From a virus, in UHGV virus genome UHGV-0043900: a DNA stretch of 39,203 nt, one strand, 5' to 3'. The translations under genes and the position numbers were made by a program. Positions 5,958-16,786 of the stretch are shown in pieces; the stretch's first letter is position 1, and each line of letters opens with the position of its first letter. Under the pieces are notes generated by a model. The model saw nothing but the letters and a program-made list of their open reading frames with translations. It ran no database searches and was not told the origin of the DNA.

Positions 5958-6256
5958 ATGATTTCTCCGGTGTATGTGACGCCCAGCCGTGCGGCAAGGC
6001 GTTCCAGTTTTTTCTGTTTGTGGAAGTCAATCAGTCGGTCCATCCCCTGAAGGCGCAACTGCTCTGTCATGATTTCCACGTCTGCCAGTTCTGCCGCGAG
6101 GTCACTTTCGCTGCCCTGTCCGTTCAGGTTGCGGGCAGCACAGGCTGCCAGTTCAGCGGCCTCTTCTGTCAGTTTCAGTGACTGTGCATCCGGCCCGAAA
6201 CGCTGCAGGGCCAGACGATAGAGGGCGGTGCGTGTGCGTATGGTGTTACGTGTCAT
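5954..6256 (-). CDS. Possible MazG-like nucleotide pyrophosphohydrolase (small all-helical NTP-PPase fold)
   Basis: 100 aa with pattern LKLTEEAAELAACAARN...SDLAAELADVEIMTEQL resembling the EExxE...ExxD...D metal-binding helices of MazG-like proteins. Motif-level only. Confidence 0.45.
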   Translation of the reverse strand: MTRNTIRTRTALYRLALQRFGPDAQSLKLTEEAAELAACAARNLNGQGSESDLAAELADVEIMTEQLRLQGMDRLIDFHKQKKLERLAARLGVTYTGEII

Positions 6257-10606: not shown

Positions 10607-11518
10607 TTATGCCTCCAGCCCGTTAATCTGTGGCGTCGGCTCAGTCAGCCATGAAGGCGCTGCATTGCCTGTTGGCTCGTCCGGCAGGTCAAATGTGGAG
10701 CGCAGGCTACGCGCTGTGCTTTCCAGTTGACAGACCAGGCCTGCCATGAAATCTCTGGGGGTATCAATCATGTTTTCAGCACAATATGCGCACAGTGTCT
10801 CAAAAGCGCTGGACAGTCGAACGGCGATAGCAGATTCCGCCTCAACCGCTAATGCTGTTACTTCCGCCCGCAGCTTCTTAACCTCCTCATCAGGCTCAGG
10901 CGGCTGAATACGGGATTTCTTCTCCAGTCTGGTGGAGAGTGAGTCTATTTTTTCATTTTTGTCGGCGAGTACGCGCTGTTGTGCTGCGTTGGTTTCGCGC
11001 GCTTCGCGCAGGGCCTGACGCAATTCACGTACTGACATGCGATCAACATCGTCAAGCGTCAGTCCTGCGACTGTGCCGCCGTCGGCCAGTTCAGCAAGGT
11101 CGTCGTCATCTTCAGCAACAAGTTCAAATAATTTTGCCTTACCTAAAAGCGACAACGTTGTCGCTTTTGGCTCTAGTTTTGGTGAAAGGTATTTCAAAGA
11201 TGCTTTCATCATTCGTTGTGCTGCGCGCACATGCAGACCAAGTTGTTCTTCTACAATTCCAACAAAGTCCCCGTGTGGTTCATTTTCTTTGAGAATAATA
11301 AGTCGTTTACCTGCTTCCAGCATGGCCTCAGCGCTCTGTGCCATATAAAACCGAGCCTCATGAACTATGCGATCACGCTCATAGGGCTGACCATCGCCAA
11401 ACTGCTGCATGATCTCCATGCGATGCTGTGTCATGGCGTTCAGACTGACATTGAGATCATCCGACAGCGGTACCTCGGCGTTCAGTTCAGTGTTAATCGG
11501 TGATTTGGTGCGTCCCAT
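10607..11518 (-). CDS. Conserved transposable-phage early protein (possibly DUF3102-like)
   Basis: 303 aa, helical and acidic; sits between the regulators and the transposase; AAGGAG RBS. Family name recalled, not verified. Confidence 0.55.
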   Translation of the reverse strand: MGRTKSPINTELNAEVPLSDDLNVSLNAMTQHRMEIMQQFGDGQPYERDRIVHEARFYMAQSAEAMLEAGKRLIILKENEPHGDFVGIVEEQLGLHVRAAQRMMKASLKYLSPKLEPKATTLSLLGKAKLFELVAEDDDDLAELADGGTVAGLTLDDVDRMSVRELRQALREARETNAAQQRVLADKNEKIDSLSTRLEKKSRIQPPEPDEEVKKLRAEVTALAVEAESAIAVRLSSAFETLCAYCAENMIDTPRDFMAGLVCQLESTARSLRSTFDLPDEPTGNAAPSWLTEPTPQINGLEA

Positions 11519-11528
11519 TTATTACTCC

Positions 11529-11837
11529 TTACAAACGACTACCTGAAATGACACGTTGGTTGATTTCGTTAATGCGATCCTGTGCACGTGCCATCTCGTT
11601 ACTGTGGGCCATAGCGATCTGCAGTAACTGGATGCCCGGCGCGAAACGCCCGTTTTCCAGTTTCAGGGCCAACCCTTCTTCAATGAGGGTGTTGAGTGCC
11701 CGGTTGATGTTTGCCGGTGACTCGTGCAGTGCTGCCGCCAGTTCACCGTTGGAAATACCGTTCAGGGCATGACCGCGCAGCGCTTTGAGTACCCGGAGGA
11801 TGCGACTGCCGGAGCTTGAAACATTCGTCTTACTCAT
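11529..11837 (-). CDS. Winged-helix DNA-binding protein (IclR-like HTH), putative early regulator
   Basis: Segment ILRVLKALRGHALNGISNGELAAALHESPANINRALNTLIEEGL resembles an IclR-type N-terminal HTH. Start set at the second ATG (11837), which has better RBS spacing. Confidence 0.5.
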   Translation of the reverse strand: MSKTNVSSSGSRILRVLKALRGHALNGISNGELAAALHESPANINRALNTLIEEGLALKLENGRFAPGIQLLQIAMAHSNEMARAQDRINEINQRVISGSRL

Positions 11838-11889
11838 CTGCATACCTCTTTTGCGATATGTGATAACCTTTTACAAAGACTCAAAATCT

Positions 11890-12078
11890 TCAGGCTGCCT
11901 GAGCTGTTGATTTCAGCCCCAACTTCACGGCGATTTCATGGGATTTACCGTAACGGGCTTTGGTCTGCCCATTGAGAACGCGGTATACCTCATTGCGGTT
12001 GTAGCCGTTTTCTTCTGCCCAGCGGGTGAAGGTGATCCCGCGCTGGCGGAAGAGAGCTTTGACTTGTTCTGCAGTCAT
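11890..12078 (-). CDS. Ner-like small DNA-binding protein (Ner/Nlp family); first gene of the early operon
   Basis: 62 aa with the Ner layout VKALFRQRGITFTRWAEENGY...GKSHEIAVKLGL. Divergent from the repressor gene. RBS AAAGGAGA. Confidence 0.6.
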   Translation of the reverse strand: MTAEQVKALFRQRGITFTRWAEENGYNRNEVYRVLNGQTKARYGKSHEIAVKLGLKSTAQAA

Positions 12079-12178
12079 CGTTGTCTCCTTTGTTGATGCA
12101 ATGATGTTTGCCTTATGTGTGATAGATTATGGTGCAGATTATCTCACCAGTCAACTTAAAGAGTGCAGAAAAACTCAC
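12079..12178. promoter_or_regulatory. Divergent early-promoter/operator region between the Ner-like gene and the repressor
   Basis: 100-bp AT-rich intergenic region between divergent regulators, with direct repeats of AGATTAT 12 bp apart within GTGATAGATTATGGTGCAGATTATCTCAC. Confidence 0.45.
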
Positions 12179-12517
12179 ATGATCGGGTTACGTATTAAAG
12201 AAGAAAGAGAGCGTCTATCTCTTACACAGCAAGGGTTGGCTGATGCTATAGGTGTGGCAAAGAGAACTTTCATTGATTGGGAAAAAGATCGCACTTCTCC
12301 TACTGCAGTGCAGTTATCTGCACTATCAGAAATCGGTGTAGATATTTTGTATGTAGTTACTGGGGTGCGGAGTCAGCCTGTTGTTGCACCTTATGTGTCA
12401 CAAGAAAAGAAAGAGTTAATGGATGCATTCGACGAAATGAGCCCCGAACAACGGAGGGCAATTCTTGAGGTCGGCAAAGTCTTCATTCAACCCAAACCAA
12501 GCAAACTCGCAGGCTGA
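12179..12517 (+). CDS. Putative prophage repressor (XRE-family HTH)
   Basis: Internal ATG of ORF 12026-12517; HTH LSLTQQGLADAIGVAKRTFIDWEKDRTSP; divergent from the early operon. GC-poor relative to neighbours. Confidence 0.65.
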   Translation: MIGLRIKEERERLSLTQQGLADAIGVAKRTFIDWEKDRTSPTAVQLSALSEIGVDILYVVTGVRSQPVVAPYVSQEKKELMDAFDEMSPEQRRAILEVGKVFIQPKPSKLAG

Positions 12518-12603
12518 TTTTGACCTGGACACAAAGGGCGCGTGGTTGATCTGGATGCTTTCAGAAAACATCGCCAGTGACATAGTGGAAGTTGTTTGGT
12601 TTA

Positions 12604-12637
12604 CCGGAAAGCATTGTGCTTTCCGGTTTTGTTTCAG
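12604..12637 (+). terminator. Rho-independent terminator between convergent repressor and Dam genes
   Basis: 10-bp perfect stem CCGGAAAGCA/TGCTTTCCGG with 3-nt loop, followed by TTTTGTTT. Confidence 0.5.
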
Positions 12638-13398
12638 AAGTTGCAGATTACCAGTTCACGGCGCGGCGTGGGTTTCCCCGCCAGACTGTAGTTGATATTC
12701 ACCGTCTGTATGTTCAGTTCAGTGAACACCCGACGCATCTGCGGAATGTCATTCACCGAGATAATCATCTTTCCTCTGATGCACCGTGCCAGTTCTGCGA
12801 GTAGTGTGTAGTTCTCTTCAGGAAAATCCACACCATAGCCTTCCGTCCCCAGATAGGGCGGATCACAGTAGAACAGCGTGTGCGGACGGTCATAACGCTT
12901 AATGCACTGGTGCCAGTCCATGTGTTCTATCACCGTTCTGGAAAGCCGCAGGTGTGCCGCTGACAGTTCTTCTTCAATCCGGAGCAGGTTGAAGCGTGGC
13001 GGGGAGGTGGTGGAGGTGCCGAAGCTGTGCTCTGCCACCTTGCCCCCAAACGCCTGCTTCTGGAGGTAGTAGAACCGTGCCGCACGCTGGATATCCGTCA
13101 GTGTTTCTTCCGGGGTGATCTGCTGCCATTTGTAGATCTGCCGGCTAACCAGCGCCCATTTGAATTGGCGGACAAATTCTTCCAGATGATGCTTTACTAC
13201 CCGATACAGATTTACCAGTTCACCGTTGATATCGTTAATGACTTCGATCTTGCTGGGAGTCTTGAGAAAATAAAGTGCTGCTGCGCCGCAGAATGGCTCC
13301 ACATAGCAGGTATGGAGTGGGAACTGGGGCAGAATGTGTTTGGCCAGACGACGTTTTCCCCCAATCCAGGGGACGATGGGTAAAGATTGTTCTTTCAT
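12634..13398 (-). CDS. Orphan DNA adenine methyltransferase (Dam/D12-class N6-adenine MTase)
   Basis: N-terminal IVPWIGGKRRLAKHIL, FCGAAAL AdoMet motif and catalytic DPPY (LFYCDPPYLGTEGYG). Start set at the internal ATG 13398 (MKEQSLPIVPW). No restriction partner evident. Confidence 0.8.
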   Translation of the reverse strand: MKEQSLPIVPWIGGKRRLAKHILPQFPLHTCYVEPFCGAAALYFLKTPSKIEVINDINGELVNLYRVVKHHLEEFVRQFKWALVSRQIYKWQQITPEETLTDIQRAARFYYLQKQAFGGKVAEHSFGTSTTSPPRFNLLRIEEELSAAHLRLSRTVIEHMDWHQCIKRYDRPHTLFYCDPPYLGTEGYGVDFPEENYTLLAELARCIRGKMIISVNDIPQMRRVFTELNIQTVNINYSLAGKPTPRRELVICNF

Positions 13399-13445
13399 TA
13401 TCTGTAAGCCTTTTTCATTAGATGAAAATGCGATAGGCTTCCCTT

Positions 13446-13457
13446 GTTCTCGAGAAC
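13446..13457. promoter_or_regulatory. Perfect 12-bp palindrome GTTCTCGAGAAC in the Dam / paralog-1 divergent intergenic region (candidate operator)
   Basis: The duplicated cassette carries a different perfect 12-bp palindrome at the equivalent position (14081-14092), so dyad symmetry is preserved despite sequence change. Confidence 0.35.
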
Positions 13458-13500
13458 GGAAGAGCCTCGGTTGACTCACAGCTCATACCTGTAAGTTGAT

Positions 13501-13550
13501 GACTCGCCTTGTGTTCGCTGCACAAGGTGAGTCGCTCTTTTCATGTTATT
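13501..13550 (+). terminator. Strong hairpin plus U-rich tract upstream of paralog 1 (terminator or attenuator-like element)
   Basis: 13-bp stem GACTCGCCTTGTG/CACAAGGTGAGTC (one G-U pair), 7-nt loop, then GCTCTTTTCATGTTATTTG. The cassette copy at 14138-14181 has a different stem with the same architecture. Confidence 0.45.
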
Positions 13551-13592
13551 TGCATATTTCATGGGCGACAATTAAAGGGAGTTACTAATACC

Positions 13593-13973
13593 ATGGCCCC
13601 AAAAAATATTGAGCGGTTTAATGAAATAGTTGGTGAGATATTTGGGAGACTCTACGAATCTTTCCCCGTCAAAATTGATATAAAGGCAGTTGATATCGTT
13701 AGACAGAATGAACTTACTTTTTTTCTTGATACCGTAGACTGGCTTAAAAACAGTGGCTATTTAATCGGGGCGCGTAGTTCTGGGGGGATCCACAACGCAG
13801 TGCTAACGGCTAAAGGTCTTGAGGTATTAAACGCTACGCCTGGAAGTCTGGAAAAACCGTTGGGGGCCAGAATATCTGACTCTATAAAAATTGAAGGGAA
13901 AGAAGCGTTGCGATCACTGGTTAGCCAGACTCTAGGAATAGGTCTGCAATATATGTCTCGTGGTCTTATGTAA
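13593..13973 (+). CDS. Small protein of unknown function (127 aa), paralog 1 of a duplicated pair
   Basis: Internal ATG of ORF 13509-13973 with RBS AAAGGGAG. Shares FxxIxGxIFxRL, DTxxWL and VLTxKxLxxLNATP blocks with the protein at 14439-14843. AT-rich codon usage. Confidence 0.6.
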   Translation: MAPKNIERFNEIVGEIFGRLYESFPVKIDIKAVDIVRQNELTFFLDTVDWLKNSGYLIGARSSGGIHNAVLTAKGLEVLNATPGSLEKPLGARISDSIKIEGKEALRSLVSQTLGIGLQYMSRGLM

Positions 13974-14033
13974 TATCGCAAGGCAGCGTTTGCCACCAAT
14001 CCATGGAACGATGGGTAATGTCTGCGTTTTCAT
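13932..14033 (-). pseudogene. Remnant 5' end of a second Dam methylase gene (about 20 conserved codons)
   Basis: Reverse strand encodes MKTQTLPIVPWIGGKR, homologous to the start of the intact Dam (MKEQSLPIVPWIGGKRR), then diverges into the 3' end of paralog 1 and stops after 33 codons. Confidence 0.55.
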
Positions 14034-14080
14034 AATCTGTAAACATTTTACAATTATTAAAAATATGGCAGGCTAGTCTG

Positions 14081-14092
14081 GTCTCGCGAGAC
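14081..14092. promoter_or_regulatory. Perfect 12-bp palindrome GTCTCGCGAGAC (candidate operator of the duplicated cassette)
   Basis: Positional equivalent of GTTCTCGAGAAC at 13446-13457, with the same flanking conserved block CCTCGGT-G-CTCACAGC. Confidence 0.35.
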
Positions 14093-14137
14093 TGACTGAA
14101 CCTCGGTCGGCTCACAGCCACTTCTGTGGGACGATGG

Positions 14138-14181
14138 CCAGCCCGGTGGGTCCGAAGCACCGGGCTGGTCGTTCTTTCATG
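14138..14181 (+). terminator. Hairpin plus U-rich tract, second copy of the cassette leader element
   Basis: 11-bp perfect stem CCAGCCCGGTG/CACCGGGCTGG, 9-nt loop, then TCGTTCTTTCATG. Confidence 0.45.
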
Positions 14182-14224
14182 ATGCGGCAGGGATGAAGTG
14201 ATTTCTGTTAATGTGGTTTAGGGA

Positions 14225-14440
14225 TTATCCGGGGCGATTTTCTGACCTTATCTGGTCCAGGGCATAAGTAATACCTTCTGCAAAAACAGAAGTATCAAAC
14301 TGCTTTTGTATTTCCTGAAAATGAACTGTGGCACGACAGACACTCAGTTCTCCGCGATGTAACCGGATAATATCTTCCAGAACATTGTTCACTGCTTCAG
14401 CACGGCGCTGATGTTCTGTTAACGTTAATCGGGGATTCAT
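14225..14440 (-). CDS. Hypothetical 71-aa helical protein
   Basis: ORF whose ATG overlaps head-to-head with the ATG of the 14439 gene (CATGATG). No recognisable motif. Confidence 0.4.
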   Translation of the reverse strand: MNPRLTLTEHQRRAEAVNNVLEDIIRLHRGELSVCRATVHFQEIQKQFDTSVFAEGITYALDQIRSENRPG

Positions 14441-14843
14441 GATGCACTCCTTAAATGATGATTTTTATGCACTCACCGGCAAAATATTCTGCCGATTACT
14501 GAACACGCATCCGGCACCTCAGGTTTTGATTTATTCTGGTTTTTTCGATATCCCGGACCAGGTTGATCACGACCAGAAAAAGTGCCGGTATTTTATTGAT
14601 ACGCTGATATGGCTTCGGGATAACAGCTATATTCGTTACTCTCAGTTGCTGGCTGTGGGAGCGGCTGATGTCGTCCTCACGGAAAAAACGCTCCGTCTGC
14701 TCAATGCCACGCCGACCCTTCTGCAGCCCCGGCCCGCACCATTTAAAGAGTCACTTCTGGATGCAGTAAAAACCGGTGAAAATGCAGTCATCGCTGAACG
14801 CGTATCCCGGATTATGAGTTACGTGTTTAATGAACGTAAGTGA
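14439..14843 (+). CDS. Small protein of unknown function (134 aa), paralog 2 of the duplicated pair
   Basis: RBS GGGGA then ATG-ATG. Roughly 25-30% identity by eye to paralog 1 over conserved blocks. 3' end overlaps the convergent P-loop gene by 25 nt. Confidence 0.6.
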   Translation: MMHSLNDDFYALTGKIFCRLLNTHPAPQVLIYSGFFDIPDQVDHDQKKCRYFIDTLIWLRDNSYIRYSQLLAVGAADVVLTEKTLRLLNATPTLLQPRPAPFKESLLDAVKTGENAVIAERVSRIMSYVFNERK

Positions 14844-15562
14844 GGTTTATCCGCTGTCTGCATAATCCCGATAGCCAGTGCGAGGGGAAGTAATTCCGGG
14901 GAAGTTCTTTCAAACAGCGATTCCCATTCTCCTCTCGCCATCACTCTGTCCAGCCCGCCCTCCAGTTGCATTTCAGCAATCTTCCTGATTTCCCGGAACA
15001 ACGCCTCTTTGATCACTTCATGCTCAGCTTTATTTTCCGGTGTCAGAATGTATTCGTCGAAGAACCGGGGAGGCTGGTTAACGGGGATTGTGTTCACCGG
15101 GATGTGTTCCTGCTTCCCGTACTTCGGGGCCGAAAAACATTCTGTTGGCTGACCAGTGAGTTTACGTAGCTCCTTCATGAGCAGCTCCTGATCGTAAACT
15201 GCCATCAGTGCCGCAATAGTGGCATGCAGTGCATCGGGCAGTGTCCATGGGTACTGGCCTGTGGGGCATATAACATCCAGCAGTGCATTCGTCCGGAGAA
15301 TGCATCCCTCGCTGTATGACATCGGAGTTTTTTCTGTGTATTCCTCCAGTCGGATAAGTGTGCCTGCCCGTGGTTTCTGCCATGTGCTCAGATCACCCCC
15401 ACTCATACGGCGCTCACCGTCCACGTCTGCGGCGTCGACAATGACGCTGTTTCCGAATTCCTGTTTCACCACTTCCTCTATCCGCGCCAATATGTAACTT
15501 TTACCGCTGCCCACAGGACCGGACACGGTGACAGTGATGACCGGATTCAGTGTCTGCGTCAT
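14819..15562 (-). CDS. Small P-loop NTPase/kinase-like protein (247 aa), unknown function
   Basis: N-terminal Walker A VTVSGPVGSGKSY, followed by hhhhD-like SVIVDAADVDG. Strong RBS GAGGAG. Resembles small nucleotide-kinase or zeta-toxin-like folds in layout only. Confidence 0.7.
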   Translation of the reverse strand: MTQTLNPVITVTVSGPVGSGKSYILARIEEVVKQEFGNSVIVDAADVDGERRMSGGDLSTWQKPRAGTLIRLEEYTEKTPMSYSEGCILRTNALLDVICPTGQYPWTLPDALHATIAALMAVYDQELLMKELRKLTGQPTECFSAPKYGKQEHIPVNTIPVNQPPRFFDEYILTPENKAEHEVIKEALFREIRKIAEMQLEGGLDRVMARGEWESLFERTSPELLPLALAIGIMQTADKPHLRSLNT

Positions 15563-15634
15563 ATCGTATTCTCCTCTGTGAATAATTCATCGTTTATCCT
15601 GCACATCCCGTATCCCCGGCTCTCTTAACGCGCT

Positions 15635-15673
15635 TTAAAATCCTTCGCGCCCTGTATTTGTGATGCTGTCTCC
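15635..15673 (+). promoter_or_regulatory. Candidate activator-dependent late promoter of the lysis operon
   Basis: TTAAAATC-N23-CTGTCTCC with inner CTGTATTT, about 20 nt upstream of the holin ATG. The same bipartite motif at identical spacing occurs at 23030-23068. Confidence 0.4.
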
Positions 15674-15692
15674 ACCAGATAAGGAGACACAC

Positions 15693-16043
15693 ATGAAAAA
15701 CCTGAAAACATTCATTCCCCCTGTTAAAAAACCTCGCCTCAGCGGCTGGCTGCTGACCTCAGTGCTGTTGCTGGGCACCATCGCTCTGGTCTCACCACAG
15801 CAACTGCCTGTTGTGATCTACAAGCTGGCACTCATCACGCTGGCAGCAGTGCTGGGTTACTGGCTTGACCGTTCGCTCTTCCCCAAAGCCCGTCCCGGTC
15901 AGTACCTGAAACATGACGACAGGCTGATGGCTGAAGGGCGTTTCCCGGTACAGACCGGCCTTCACCTGGTGTTTTCTGCTGCGTTAATCCGCCGTGCACT
16001 GATTGTTGCAGCGGTCTGCCTGGCTGTTGCGATGGGGCTTTAA
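15693..16043 (+). CDS. Putative holin (three predicted TM segments)
   Basis: Internal ATG of ORF 15660-16043 with RBS AAGGAGA; 116 aa, three hydrophobic helices; immediately upstream of the endolysin. Confidence 0.55.
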   Translation: MKNLKTFIPPVKKPRLSGWLLTSVLLLGTIALVSPQQLPVVIYKLALITLAAVLGYWLDRSLFPKARPGQYLKHDDRLMAEGRFPVQTGLHLVFSAALIRRALIVAAVCLAVAMGL

Positions 16044-16045
16044 TC

Positions 16046-16786
16046 ATGAACTGGCCGCAGATCACCTGGATTGTATGCATGTCCCTGAAACTGGCTTTCG
16101 AAGCCTTTCGGGTCTTCATCAGAACCGAACGCCTGTCAGTCCGCGCCGGGACCTTTCTGGTTCATATGGCATGGGTATTCTTTGTCGCAATATTGCTCTG
16201 GTGTGGCGGCTTTTTCAGCCAGGCATGCGCAGCACAACCTCCGCAGGCTGCGCTGCAGTATCGCGATGATGTGATCCGTAATGCCCGGCTTGAATGGGGA
16301 CTGTCTGCGCCGGTGGCCGACTTTGCCGCGCAACTGCATCAGGAAAGCGGCTGGCGACCTGATGCGGTCTCACCGGCTGGCGCTCAAGGACTGGCGCAGT
16401 TCATGCCTGCCACTGCCGACTGGATAAGCCAGTTGATACCGATGCTGAGCAGTCGTGAGCCGTTTAATCCTGCATGGGCTATCCGGGCGCTGGTCAGCTA
16501 TGACCGCTGGCTGTGGCAGCGCGTCAGCGCCGCCAACGACTGCGAGCGTATGGCCATGACACTGTCGGGCTATAACGGTGGTCTGGGCTGGGTACAACGG
16601 GACAGGCGGCTTGCATCACAGAAAGGTCTGGACAGCACCCGCTGGTTTGGTCATGTCGCCACGGTGAATGCCGGACGCAATGCGGCCAGCTGGCGGGAGA
16701 ACCGTCATTATCCGCAACGCATTCTGCGTGAGCTGGCACCGCGATATCTCACATGGGGAGGCAGCAGTTGTGTGGCATCTGGTTAA
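16046..16786 (+). CDS. Endolysin: lytic transglycosylase (SLT domain) with hydrophobic N-terminal signal or SAR-like segment
   Basis: SLT motifs EWGLSAPVADFAAQLHQESGWRPDAVSPAGAQGLAQFMPATADWI; N-terminal hydrophobic stretch MAWVFFVAILLWCGGFFSQACAA. Confidence 0.8.
   Translation: MNWPQITWIVCMSLKLAFEAFRVFIRTERLSVRAGTFLVHMAWVFFVAILLWCGGFFSQACAAQPPQAALQYRDDVIRNARLEWGLSAPVADFAAQLHQESGWRPDAVSPAGAQGLAQFMPATADWISQLIPMLSSREPFNPAWAIRALVSYDRWLWQRVSAANDCERMAMTLSGYNGGLGWVQRDRRLASQKGLDSTRWFGHVATVNAGRNAASWRENRHYPQRILRELAPRYLTWGGSSCVASG

Follow-up and report, generated by a model that had tools for sequence, protein, structure and literature searches.

What are the two small genes lying between the methylase and lysis genes of this prophage, and why are there two of them? 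The window, that is, the whole stretch of 39,203 nucleotides that was analysed (UHGV virus genome UHGV-0043900), is a BcepMu-like transposable prophage, and its positions 13978-15000 are 95% identical to the E. coli phage PhiKM (Bcepmuvirus). To the left of the locus lie genes for a transposase, a Ner-like protein, an XRE-type repressor and a Dam methylase, and to its right those for a holin, an SLT lysin, terminase and portal. The interval between dam and the holin gene contains four genes, ORF A, ORF71, ORF B and the gene of a 247-aa P-loop protein. The products of ORF A and ORF B are assigned here to one family, W, and that of ORF71 to a second family, S:

12634-13398, minus strand: Dam-type N6-adenine methyltransferase (PF02086, E 2.9e-27), left boundary of the cargo slot
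13593-13973, plus strand: ORF A, W protein of 126 aa, a solo copy with no partner gene
14225-14440, minus strand: ORF71, S protein of 71 aa, helical (phrog_4490), divergent from ORF B
14439-14843, plus strand: ORF B, W protein of 134 aa (phrog_2266), the majority copy among E. coli carriers of the prophage
14819-15562, minus strand: P-loop protein of 247 aa (phrog_3787, E 1.6e-148)

At the protein level, ORF A and ORF B share 27% identity over 121 columns (BLASTP, E 2e-12), so that the blocks in which the earlier note had seen a resemblance of 25-30% (F..xG.IF.RL, DT..WL and VLT.K.L..LNATP..L.P) are real. Profile comparison agrees with the pairwise alignment: phrog_2266 is matched over its full length by ORF A (E 9.6e-36, residues 3-122 on profile positions 2-143 of 144) and by ORF B (E 4.2e-43, residues 2-133 on positions 1-142 of 144), and an HMM of the W family recovers each of them at E ~1e-47. 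It can be said with high confidence that the two proteins are homologous and deeply diverged, their similarity being far beyond chance. Their earlier description as proteins of no recognisable family holds for Pfam, NCBIfam and PADLOC, which yielded no informative hit for ORF A, ORF B or ORF71 (none of the three matched a defence model of PADLOC-DB 2.0), but not for phage protein families, since phrog_2266, a PHROG without annotation, covers both, and an exhaustive profile search at E<=0.001 retrieved 1,810 cluster-50 representatives of W, distributed over the Proteobacteria. Nearly all of these 1,810 are stand-alone proteins of 135-155 aa. Their hosts include Escherichia, Salmonella, Serratia, Brenneria, Pectobacterium, Pantoea, many Pseudomonas, Vibrio, Aeromonas, Kushneria, a betaproteobacterium and Bilophila, and further members come from a Desulfobacteraceae MAG and a Helicobacter pullorum phage. 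Homologues 93-95% identical to ORF B form a 460-member cluster; in one of the loci compared (L021), ORF B carries the RefSeq annotation WP_000972292. No paper on the W family was found in the literature on DUF2513 and on morons, winged-helix proteins and BcepMu. GiPD474 of Gifsy-1 proved to be an unrelated ParA-like ATPase.

At the structural level, the AlphaFold model of W built from a 19-sequence alignment (pLDDT 91, pTM 0.87) predicts a long helix at the N-terminus, then one strand and a helix of 16 residues, followed by a beta-hairpin wing and three helices; a winged-helix fold with a C-terminal helical extension is assigned to the family with high confidence. No member is shorter than ORF A, in which the variable segment found in most of the family between strand 1 and the long helix is absent. 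W proteins are small (~15 kDa) and mostly acidic, with a median pI of 5.0 and a pI below 6.5 in 89% of members. In an alignment of 164 sequences, conservation falls on core hydrophobics, glycines, prolines, K74 and K99. Acidic residues are over-represented in the canonical recognition helix, the wing sequence is hypervariable, and no conserved basic residue was seen on helix 38-53 or on the wing (58-68). These properties of charge, recognition helix and wing make it more likely that W binds protein rather than DNA. Some W members bear the UniRef label 'DUF2513 domain-containing' (PF10711). The likeness of W to DUF2513 and to PadR/MarR-like proteins consists of the winged-helix core and an 'LT.KG.E.L' motif after the wing, whereas W is set apart by its acidity and by showing no conserved DNA-reading residues in the alignment. 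When searched with PF10711 itself, ORF A and ORF B were unmatched at E<=1, and the best of 19 W members (1/19) reached E 0.073, far under the gathering score. Profile searches of the PDB with W and S returned only noise at E>0.03, faint resemblances of W to winged helices (AspA, F-93) being the sole exception. Among the viral structures of BFVD, Foldseek matched nothing at E<=0.001.

Concerning the distribution of the family, Pfam annotation of neighbours together with ORF maps places W, or W with S, in several distinct settings: between terL (gpA) and gpW/portal in lambda-like heads, between tail tube and tail chaperone in myovirus tails, between Q and holin in lambdoid phages, in the dam-holin slot of BcepMu-like phages, in the gpA-gpQ hotspot of P2-like phages (Midge, ST147-VIM1phi7.1) and among the head genes of one Mu-like phage. 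The P2 gpA-gpQ interval is a defence hotspot, where old and tin are found in P2 (10.1101/2021.01.21.427644). Of 67 loci, 39 have W antisense to both flanking genes and only 4 have it running in the direction of both, flanks being taken as ORFs of at least 100 aa. Among the BcepMu-like phages of the collection, tblastn finds W in PhiKM and in none of the others, and W is therefore not a core gene of this group, in line with the earlier description of ORF A and ORF B as cargo. W is best explained as a mobile accessory ('moron') gene family that is represented in the window by two alleles, ORF A and ORF B.

What tells most about the locus, and what the earlier note had missed, is ORF71 and the overlap of its start with that of ORF B. 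ORF71 matches phrog_4490 (E 5.8e-50) and an HMM of the S family (E 6e-22), a family of basic proteins of ~8 kDa with a median pI of 8.2. Across 16 loci S genes vary with a period of three, which denotes coding constraint, and on this sequence evidence ORF71 is a real gene and not a shadow ORF. With the HMMs built in this analysis, an adjacent divergent S was detected at 62 of 105 W loci, and at 11 of 25 in species-representative genomes, so that head-to-head pairing concerns about half to 60% of W loci. The homologous ORFs found head-to-head with W are 64-90 aa long. Such pairs are present in Serratia marcescens BcepMu-like prophages and in most of 80 IMG/VR loci, and in the P2-like phages Midge and ST147-VIM1phi7.1 the head-to-head partner of W is phrog_2454. 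In the reverse direction, W was present at 38 of the 39 loci retrieved through S, a set drawn from a single S subfamily and partly shared with the W set; S without W is almost never seen. There is high confidence, as judged from sequence, that ORF71 and ORF B constitute a complete, conserved two-gene S-W module, and the geometry of their shared start is equally well supported.

The two genes of this module meet in an unusual way:

14431-14452, strand not applicable: translation-initiation junction with both ribosome-binding sites (RBSs) and the shared CATG, placed from sequence

The start codons of ORF71 and ORF B overlap by 2 nt in the CATG at 14438-14441. The RBS of ORF B (GGGGA, 14431-14435) lies within codons 2-3 of ORF71, and that of ORF71 (AAGGAG, complement of 14447-14452) within codons 3-5 of ORF B. 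This arrangement is general, as a 5'-CATG-3' common to the W and S starts occurs in 45 of 49 distinct junctions, and for W as for S a Shine-Dalgarno-like motif stands ahead of the start in 39 of these 45. With each RBS located inside the partner gene, the 5' leader of either mRNA is antisense to the initiation region of the other, and transcribing either gene would be expected to hinder expression of its partner. On both strands the RNA of the junction has less structure than shuffled controls, and no palindrome conserved across subfamilies was seen there. No promoter for W came to light within S or beyond it, and a search inside S for a consensus sigma-70 site was negative both in the window and in 16 Pseudomonas-type loci.

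A second S-like sequence lies at the other end of ORF B. The P-loop gene is convergent with ORF B, overlapping it by 25 nt, and residues 185-239 at the C-terminus of its product (window 14846-15010) match the S HMM with 23 bits and E 2.7e-5, a value calculated among all ORFs of the loci. It is held with high confidence that the P-loop protein carries an S-like C-terminal domain, and ORF B would in consequence have S as its neighbour on the 5' side and a P-loop::S fusion on the 3' side. In S. marcescens a free-standing S-like ORF of 89 aa occupies the position of the P-loop gene. The fusion suggests that S is a modular domain. For the 247-aa P-loop protein, PADLOC-DB 2.0 has no model and gave only marginal P-loop matches, and an AlphaFold prediction of the P-loop::S protein from a shallow alignment was uninformative (pLDDT 45). 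Read along the minus strand, the window presents P-loop::S, the antisense ORF B, ORF71, a hairpin and dam, and the succession of P-loop::S, antisense ORF B, ORF71 and dam is a non-contiguous operon layout.

A layout of this kind is known from Tai/Ati, one of three recently described prophage systems that combine defence with self-immunity. In the E. coli phage phi80, taiEcA (204 aa) lies antisense to the Q-dependent late operon, as part of a non-contiguous operon, and head-to-head with atiEcA (76 aa); Tai is produced in the lysogen, Ati accompanies the late genes, and transcription of the latter reduces Tai (PMC11364771). S-W resembles Tai/Ati in having an antisense gene, the defence gene in Tai/Ati, with a small head-to-head gene, there the counter-defence gene, co-directional with the flanking operon. 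The 5' ends overlap in both, both occupy moron or hotspot locations in prophages, P2/P4 hotspots included, and in both many homologues lack a recognisable small partner gene. The window follows the same non-contiguous operon layout with the P-loop gene, antisense ORF B, ORF71 and dam. The overlap differs, however, as PHI80_63 and PHI80_64 share 20 nt, whereas S and W share a CATG with reciprocal RBSs. The proteins differ as well: Tai has an RNDLAH motif that looks HEPN-like by eye and Ati appears beta-rich by eye, whereas W is a predicted winged helix of 126-150 aa and S is helical. When TaiEcA and AtiEcA were searched with the profiles of W and S (hmmsearch), no score exceeded 0.2 bits, and there is thus no sequence similarity. 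A second of these systems is that of the Pseudomonas phage JBD26, whose prophage makes Tab, a small non-enzymatic protein encoded on the opposite strand in the late region under its own promoter; the adjacent small antagonist, anti-Tab, is transcribed with the late operon and binds Tab (PMC10884400). The likeness to the proposed role of S-W lies in a small prophage protein next to a small antagonist. Unlike S and W, tab and atab are convergent, with a 3' overlap, and both encode 83 aa, and Tab homologues do not extend beyond the near kin of JBD26, in contrast to the wide distribution of W. No similarity of W or S to Tab or anti-Tab was detected (best score 3.9 bits). By sequence comparison W and S are not members of the Tai, Ati, Tab or anti-Tab families; it is the architecture that matches.

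By analogy with Tai/Ati, our leading interpretation, held tentatively and at somewhat short of an even chance, is that W may be a defence-type binding protein expressed in the lysogen and S its cognate antagonist. According to this proposal, W would bind rather than catalyse and would act as a defence or exclusion factor made by the lysogen, blocking a developmental step of incoming phages. S would antagonize its cognate W when transcribed with the flanking operon, here the P-loop gene, antisense ORF B, ORF71 and dam, during the prophage's own development, and transcription in the S direction would also silence W through the antisense overlap of the initiation regions. Experiments have demonstrated a logic of this kind for Tai/Ati, for Tab/anti-Tab and for TerI/anti-TerI of Listeria phages. 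Expression of W in the lysogen is assumed here, and the suggestion that W and S bind each other comes only from their linkage and opposite charge. The conjecture of the earlier note that ORF A and ORF B are specificity or immunity components was a reasonable guess, which the present results sharpen without proving it. Several points count against the defence interpretation, among them the negative promoter search for W and the lack of a PADLOC model for W, S or the P-loop protein. The winged helix is mostly a DNA-binding fold, and acidic transcription factors exist. Some 40-55% of W genes, ORF A included, have no detectable S, and under a defence role such solo W proteins would have to be harmless to the phage that encodes them. 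Moreover, in BcepMu-like phages S runs in the direction of dam and the P-loop gene and not in that of the late structural operon. The more specific version of the proposal must be regarded as doubtful: that S-W would be a prophage system not described before and very widely spread, with about 1,800 diverged W lineages in the Proteobacteria, in which the non-enzymatic W would block a late step of competing phages, the small basic S would confer self-immunity, the shared start with its reciprocal RBSs would work as a minimal RNA-level toggle, and S would be a portable domain that binds W and lends itself to fusion with other effectors, the P-loop protein being one example. If the proposal is true, S-W would add a common and compact member to the prophage pairs of defence plus self-immunity (Tab, Tai, TerI), each of which comes from one narrow phage group, whereas S-W spans lambda-like, P2-like, Mu-like and BcepMu-like prophages from numerous genera, and the shared-CATG junction would be an unusually economical way of making two proteins mutually exclusive. 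Even if the defence role is wrong, two orphan ORFs have become a defined two-component module for which there is now a clear predicted structure, a partner gene, a fused domain and a conserved slot of leader plus cargo, all tractable in E. coli.

The main rival explanation takes the winged helix at face value, W being a conventional transcription factor and S-W a small genetic switch, in which a repressor is paired with a small antagonist or co-regulator and the promoters converge and overlap, as they do in P2 C/Cox or 186 CI/Apl; it would act on neighbouring cargo (such as dam and the P-loop gene) or on when lysis and late genes are expressed. We consider this rather unlikely. The acidity of W (median pI 5.0, 89% below 6.5) and the lack of conserved basic or polar residues on its recognition helix or wing speak against DNA reading, and ORF A is without the segment that would form a second HTH helix. 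Furthermore, the module is found in five unrelated phage architectures, at differing positions and with no constant neighbour as a target, and so cannot regulate one conserved operon, and the junction has no palindrome conserved across subfamilies. An alternative of lower probability, which we judge unlikely, is that W modulates a host factor during lysogeny, as a lysogenic conversion gene, with S as its regulator. It might, for instance, bind a nucleoid or transcription protein, as T7 gp5.5 binds H-NS. W is small, acidic and non-enzymatic and sits in moron positions typical of conversion genes, and the record of phage Midge cites an HHpred match (91%) to a T7 5.5/5.7 fusion protein. It has also to be considered whether S-W is a toxin-antitoxin-like addiction module that stabilizes the prophage, given that it is a mobile two-gene module of small, oppositely charged proteins. 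This appears quite improbable: the partners of type II toxin-antitoxin pairs are co-transcribed and made together, whereas W and S are divergent with overlapping initiation regions that oppose co-expression, searches of Pfam, NCBIfam and PADLOC linked neither of them to a family of toxins or antitoxins, and W often occurs alone but S hardly ever. Finally, a role of W as the late-gene activator of BcepMu-like phages, analogous to Mu C and redundantly encoded in two copies, would suit its size, similar to that of Mu C, and its position just upstream of the holin gene and late operon, with which it is co-directional in Serratia quinivorans, but it is very improbable and largely refuted by distribution, since W is absent by tblastn from the BcepMu-like phages of the collection other than PhiKM, an unrelated gene fills the slot in KP12, W occurs elsewhere in P2-like, lambda-like and Mu-like phages, and no Mor/C Pfam match exists.

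There remains the question of why two W genes stand in tandem, and here the sequence preceding each of them is instructive:

13343-13545, plus strand: leader copy 1, 56 nt from the start of the live dam gene, followed by the intergenic region between dam and the cargo
13978-14180, plus strand: leader copy 2, the remnant of a dead dam start plus the same intergenic region, with a hairpin at 14126-14180

The live dam gene likely starts at the ATG at 13398, with the N-terminus MKEQSLPIVPWIGGKRR. The remnant in leader 2 retains an ATG at 14031-14033 on the minus strand and amounts to 16 codons (MKTQTLPIVPWIGGKR). The two copies are ~72% identical and share a conserved hairpin, which in leader 1 spans 13498-13537 and precedes a T-run on the plus strand, forming a terminator-like site. 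Leader 1 folds with -26 kcal/mol (z -5.7) and leader 2 with -36.6 kcal/mol (z -5.1) and four compensatory pairs, leader 2 having been compared by alignment with loci L021, L012 and L015 and by blastn boundaries. An Rfam scan of 11500-16200 matched no family. ORF A starts 48 nt past the end of leader 1, and leader 2 begins 5 nt after the ORF A stop codon. In the dam-holin slot, then, variable cargo is preceded by a conserved leader of ~200 nt that is duplicated in the window: Klebsiella phage KP12 has the same leader followed by an unrelated gene of 188 aa (phrog_5663), and common E. coli prophages have only a leader of the copy-2 type, followed by ORF71 and ORF B. The slot, made of a conserved leader and variable cargo, is recognized with high confidence. 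What had been called a cassette leader is accordingly a genuine repeat, now refined to the beginning of dam together with the intergenic stretch between dam and the cargo; the statement that each W gene sits behind its own copy stands, with ORF71 lying between leader and gene in the case of ORF B. In Listeria comK prophages the TerI/anti-TerI locus similarly has a conserved promoter followed by small, mutually unrelated cargo genes that alternate between prophages (10.1101/2025.02.27.640495). The dam-proximal leader, preceding ORF A, S-W or phrog_5663, is comparable to that locus by description, not by sequence; the host of TerI is Gram-positive and its 65-aa ORF overlaps an opposite-strand gene.

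The frequency of the two W genes differs widely. The prophage region is present in 635 of 5,426 complete E. coli genomes (~12%, ST131 among them) and ORF A in 6 of the 5,426, while at least 456 of the 635 genomes carry ORF B without ORF A, matching the window in two pieces that skip ORF A. The dead 16-codon dam start in leader 2 marks recombination at the leader. Together with the rarity of ORF A, it speaks against the idea of old paralogs kept as two copies, and the tandem looks like two cargo-slot alleles stacked by recombination rather than a duplication maintained over a long time. Other relatives of ORF A, in Serratia, Brenneria and Limnobaculum, are solo W genes. ORF A itself starts at a CATG after GGGAGT, where the minus-strand ORF stops after 11 codons, which points to the loss of its S partner. 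A Salmonella relative consists of dam, ORF A, leader 2 and a truncated P-loop gene, and equals the window minus 14235-15096. This form appears to derive from the tandem, and its 'ORF A only' layout was rejected as the parent of the tandem on the same grounds. Among close homologues, ORF A shows one synonymous and six non-synonymous substitutions and ORF B none and two, respectively, numbers too small for dN/dS. Between the window and L021, synonymous divergence is 0.49 in dam, 0.20 in the P-loop gene and ~0 in ORF71 and ORF B, an unevenness that indicates mosaicism.

At the level of genome organization, the interval between dam and the holin gene behaves as a slot for cargo exchange in BcepMu-like phages, because in Klebsiella phage KP12 (L169) the leader and its hairpin precede an unrelated gene:

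L169 3791-4357: 188-aa gene (phrog_5663), unrelated to the winged-helix cargo family (W), located 3' of the same dam-proximal leader and hairpin

The same slot has a different layout, lacking dam, in a Serratia quinivorans prophage (L003/L004, 3915-6441), where genes for a repressor, for proteins of 327 aa and 206 aa and for an ORF A-type solo W share one orientation and run on into the holin gene. The 327-aa protein belongs to phrog_10002, and its anti-repressor-like matches are weak. Comparison of our prophage with its common E. coli form (L021) revealed that synonymous divergence is highly uneven among genes. Across window positions 12634-15562 it amounts to 0.49 in dam, 0.20 in the P-loop gene, 0.02 in ORF71 (the small basic helical partner, S, of ORF B) and 0 in ORF B, a W copy. 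A recent exchange of the S-W segment, independent of its neighbouring genes, seems to have taken place. ORF71 is also exactly bracketed by a 24-nt direct repeat (14203-14226 and 14414-14437; 18/24 identical; TTCTGTTAA.GT...GGGATT), with one copy at its stop and the other directly before the ORF B start. This repeat could be a mark of S gain or loss between leader and W, with about one such match estimated to be expected by chance in the region.

The duplicated leader carries two strong hairpins (folding z of about -5 to -6), each followed by a T-run:

13498-13537, plus strand: leader hairpin 1, -26 kcal/mol
14126-14180, plus strand: leader hairpin 2, -36.6 kcal/mol

The sequence of the stems varies among variants while pairing is retained, three compared sequences showing 4 compensatory pairs; an Rfam scan of 11500-16200, which covers both hairpins, gave no match. 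Read on the plus strand, both resemble intrinsic terminators or attenuators, with a weak promoter-like site (14027-14054) on one side and the cargo gene on the other; read on the minus strand, both fall within the dam 5' leader. A further GC-rich hairpin with T-runs (12603-12627) lies between the convergent repressor (plus) and dam (minus) genes, and is likely a terminator common to both.

The P-loop protein displays a modular build:

14819-15562, minus strand: P-loop protein (phrog_3787), S-like part at 14846-15010

A very small Walker-A domain (GPVGSGKS) is joined to an S-like C-terminal domain through an optional middle segment, deleted in some homologues. The N-terminal fragment of the protein is recorded as 'ABC transporter ATPase' in some E. 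coli entries, and in Salmonella the protein is reduced to the N-terminal 158 aa.

A solo W was also found in the Pseudomonas tohonis chromosome:

L009-L011 5001-5468: solo W

It is flanked by a divergent 328-aa gene and by a 767-aa gene, neither with a match in Pfam or PHROG, and a Bro-N protein adjoins; the locus may represent a different, larger W-using system. Among the S proteins, members of the subgroup whose genes are inserted into myovirus tail modules (L057, L067, L068, L078, L085, L087, L089, L091, L095 and L098-L100; S genes adjoining position 6001) bear Cys-rich C-terminal tails such as CRCCRHRG, CQCCRHF and CRCRGCPQC, which are absent from the other S proteins, including ORF71, and may constitute a metal-binding extension.
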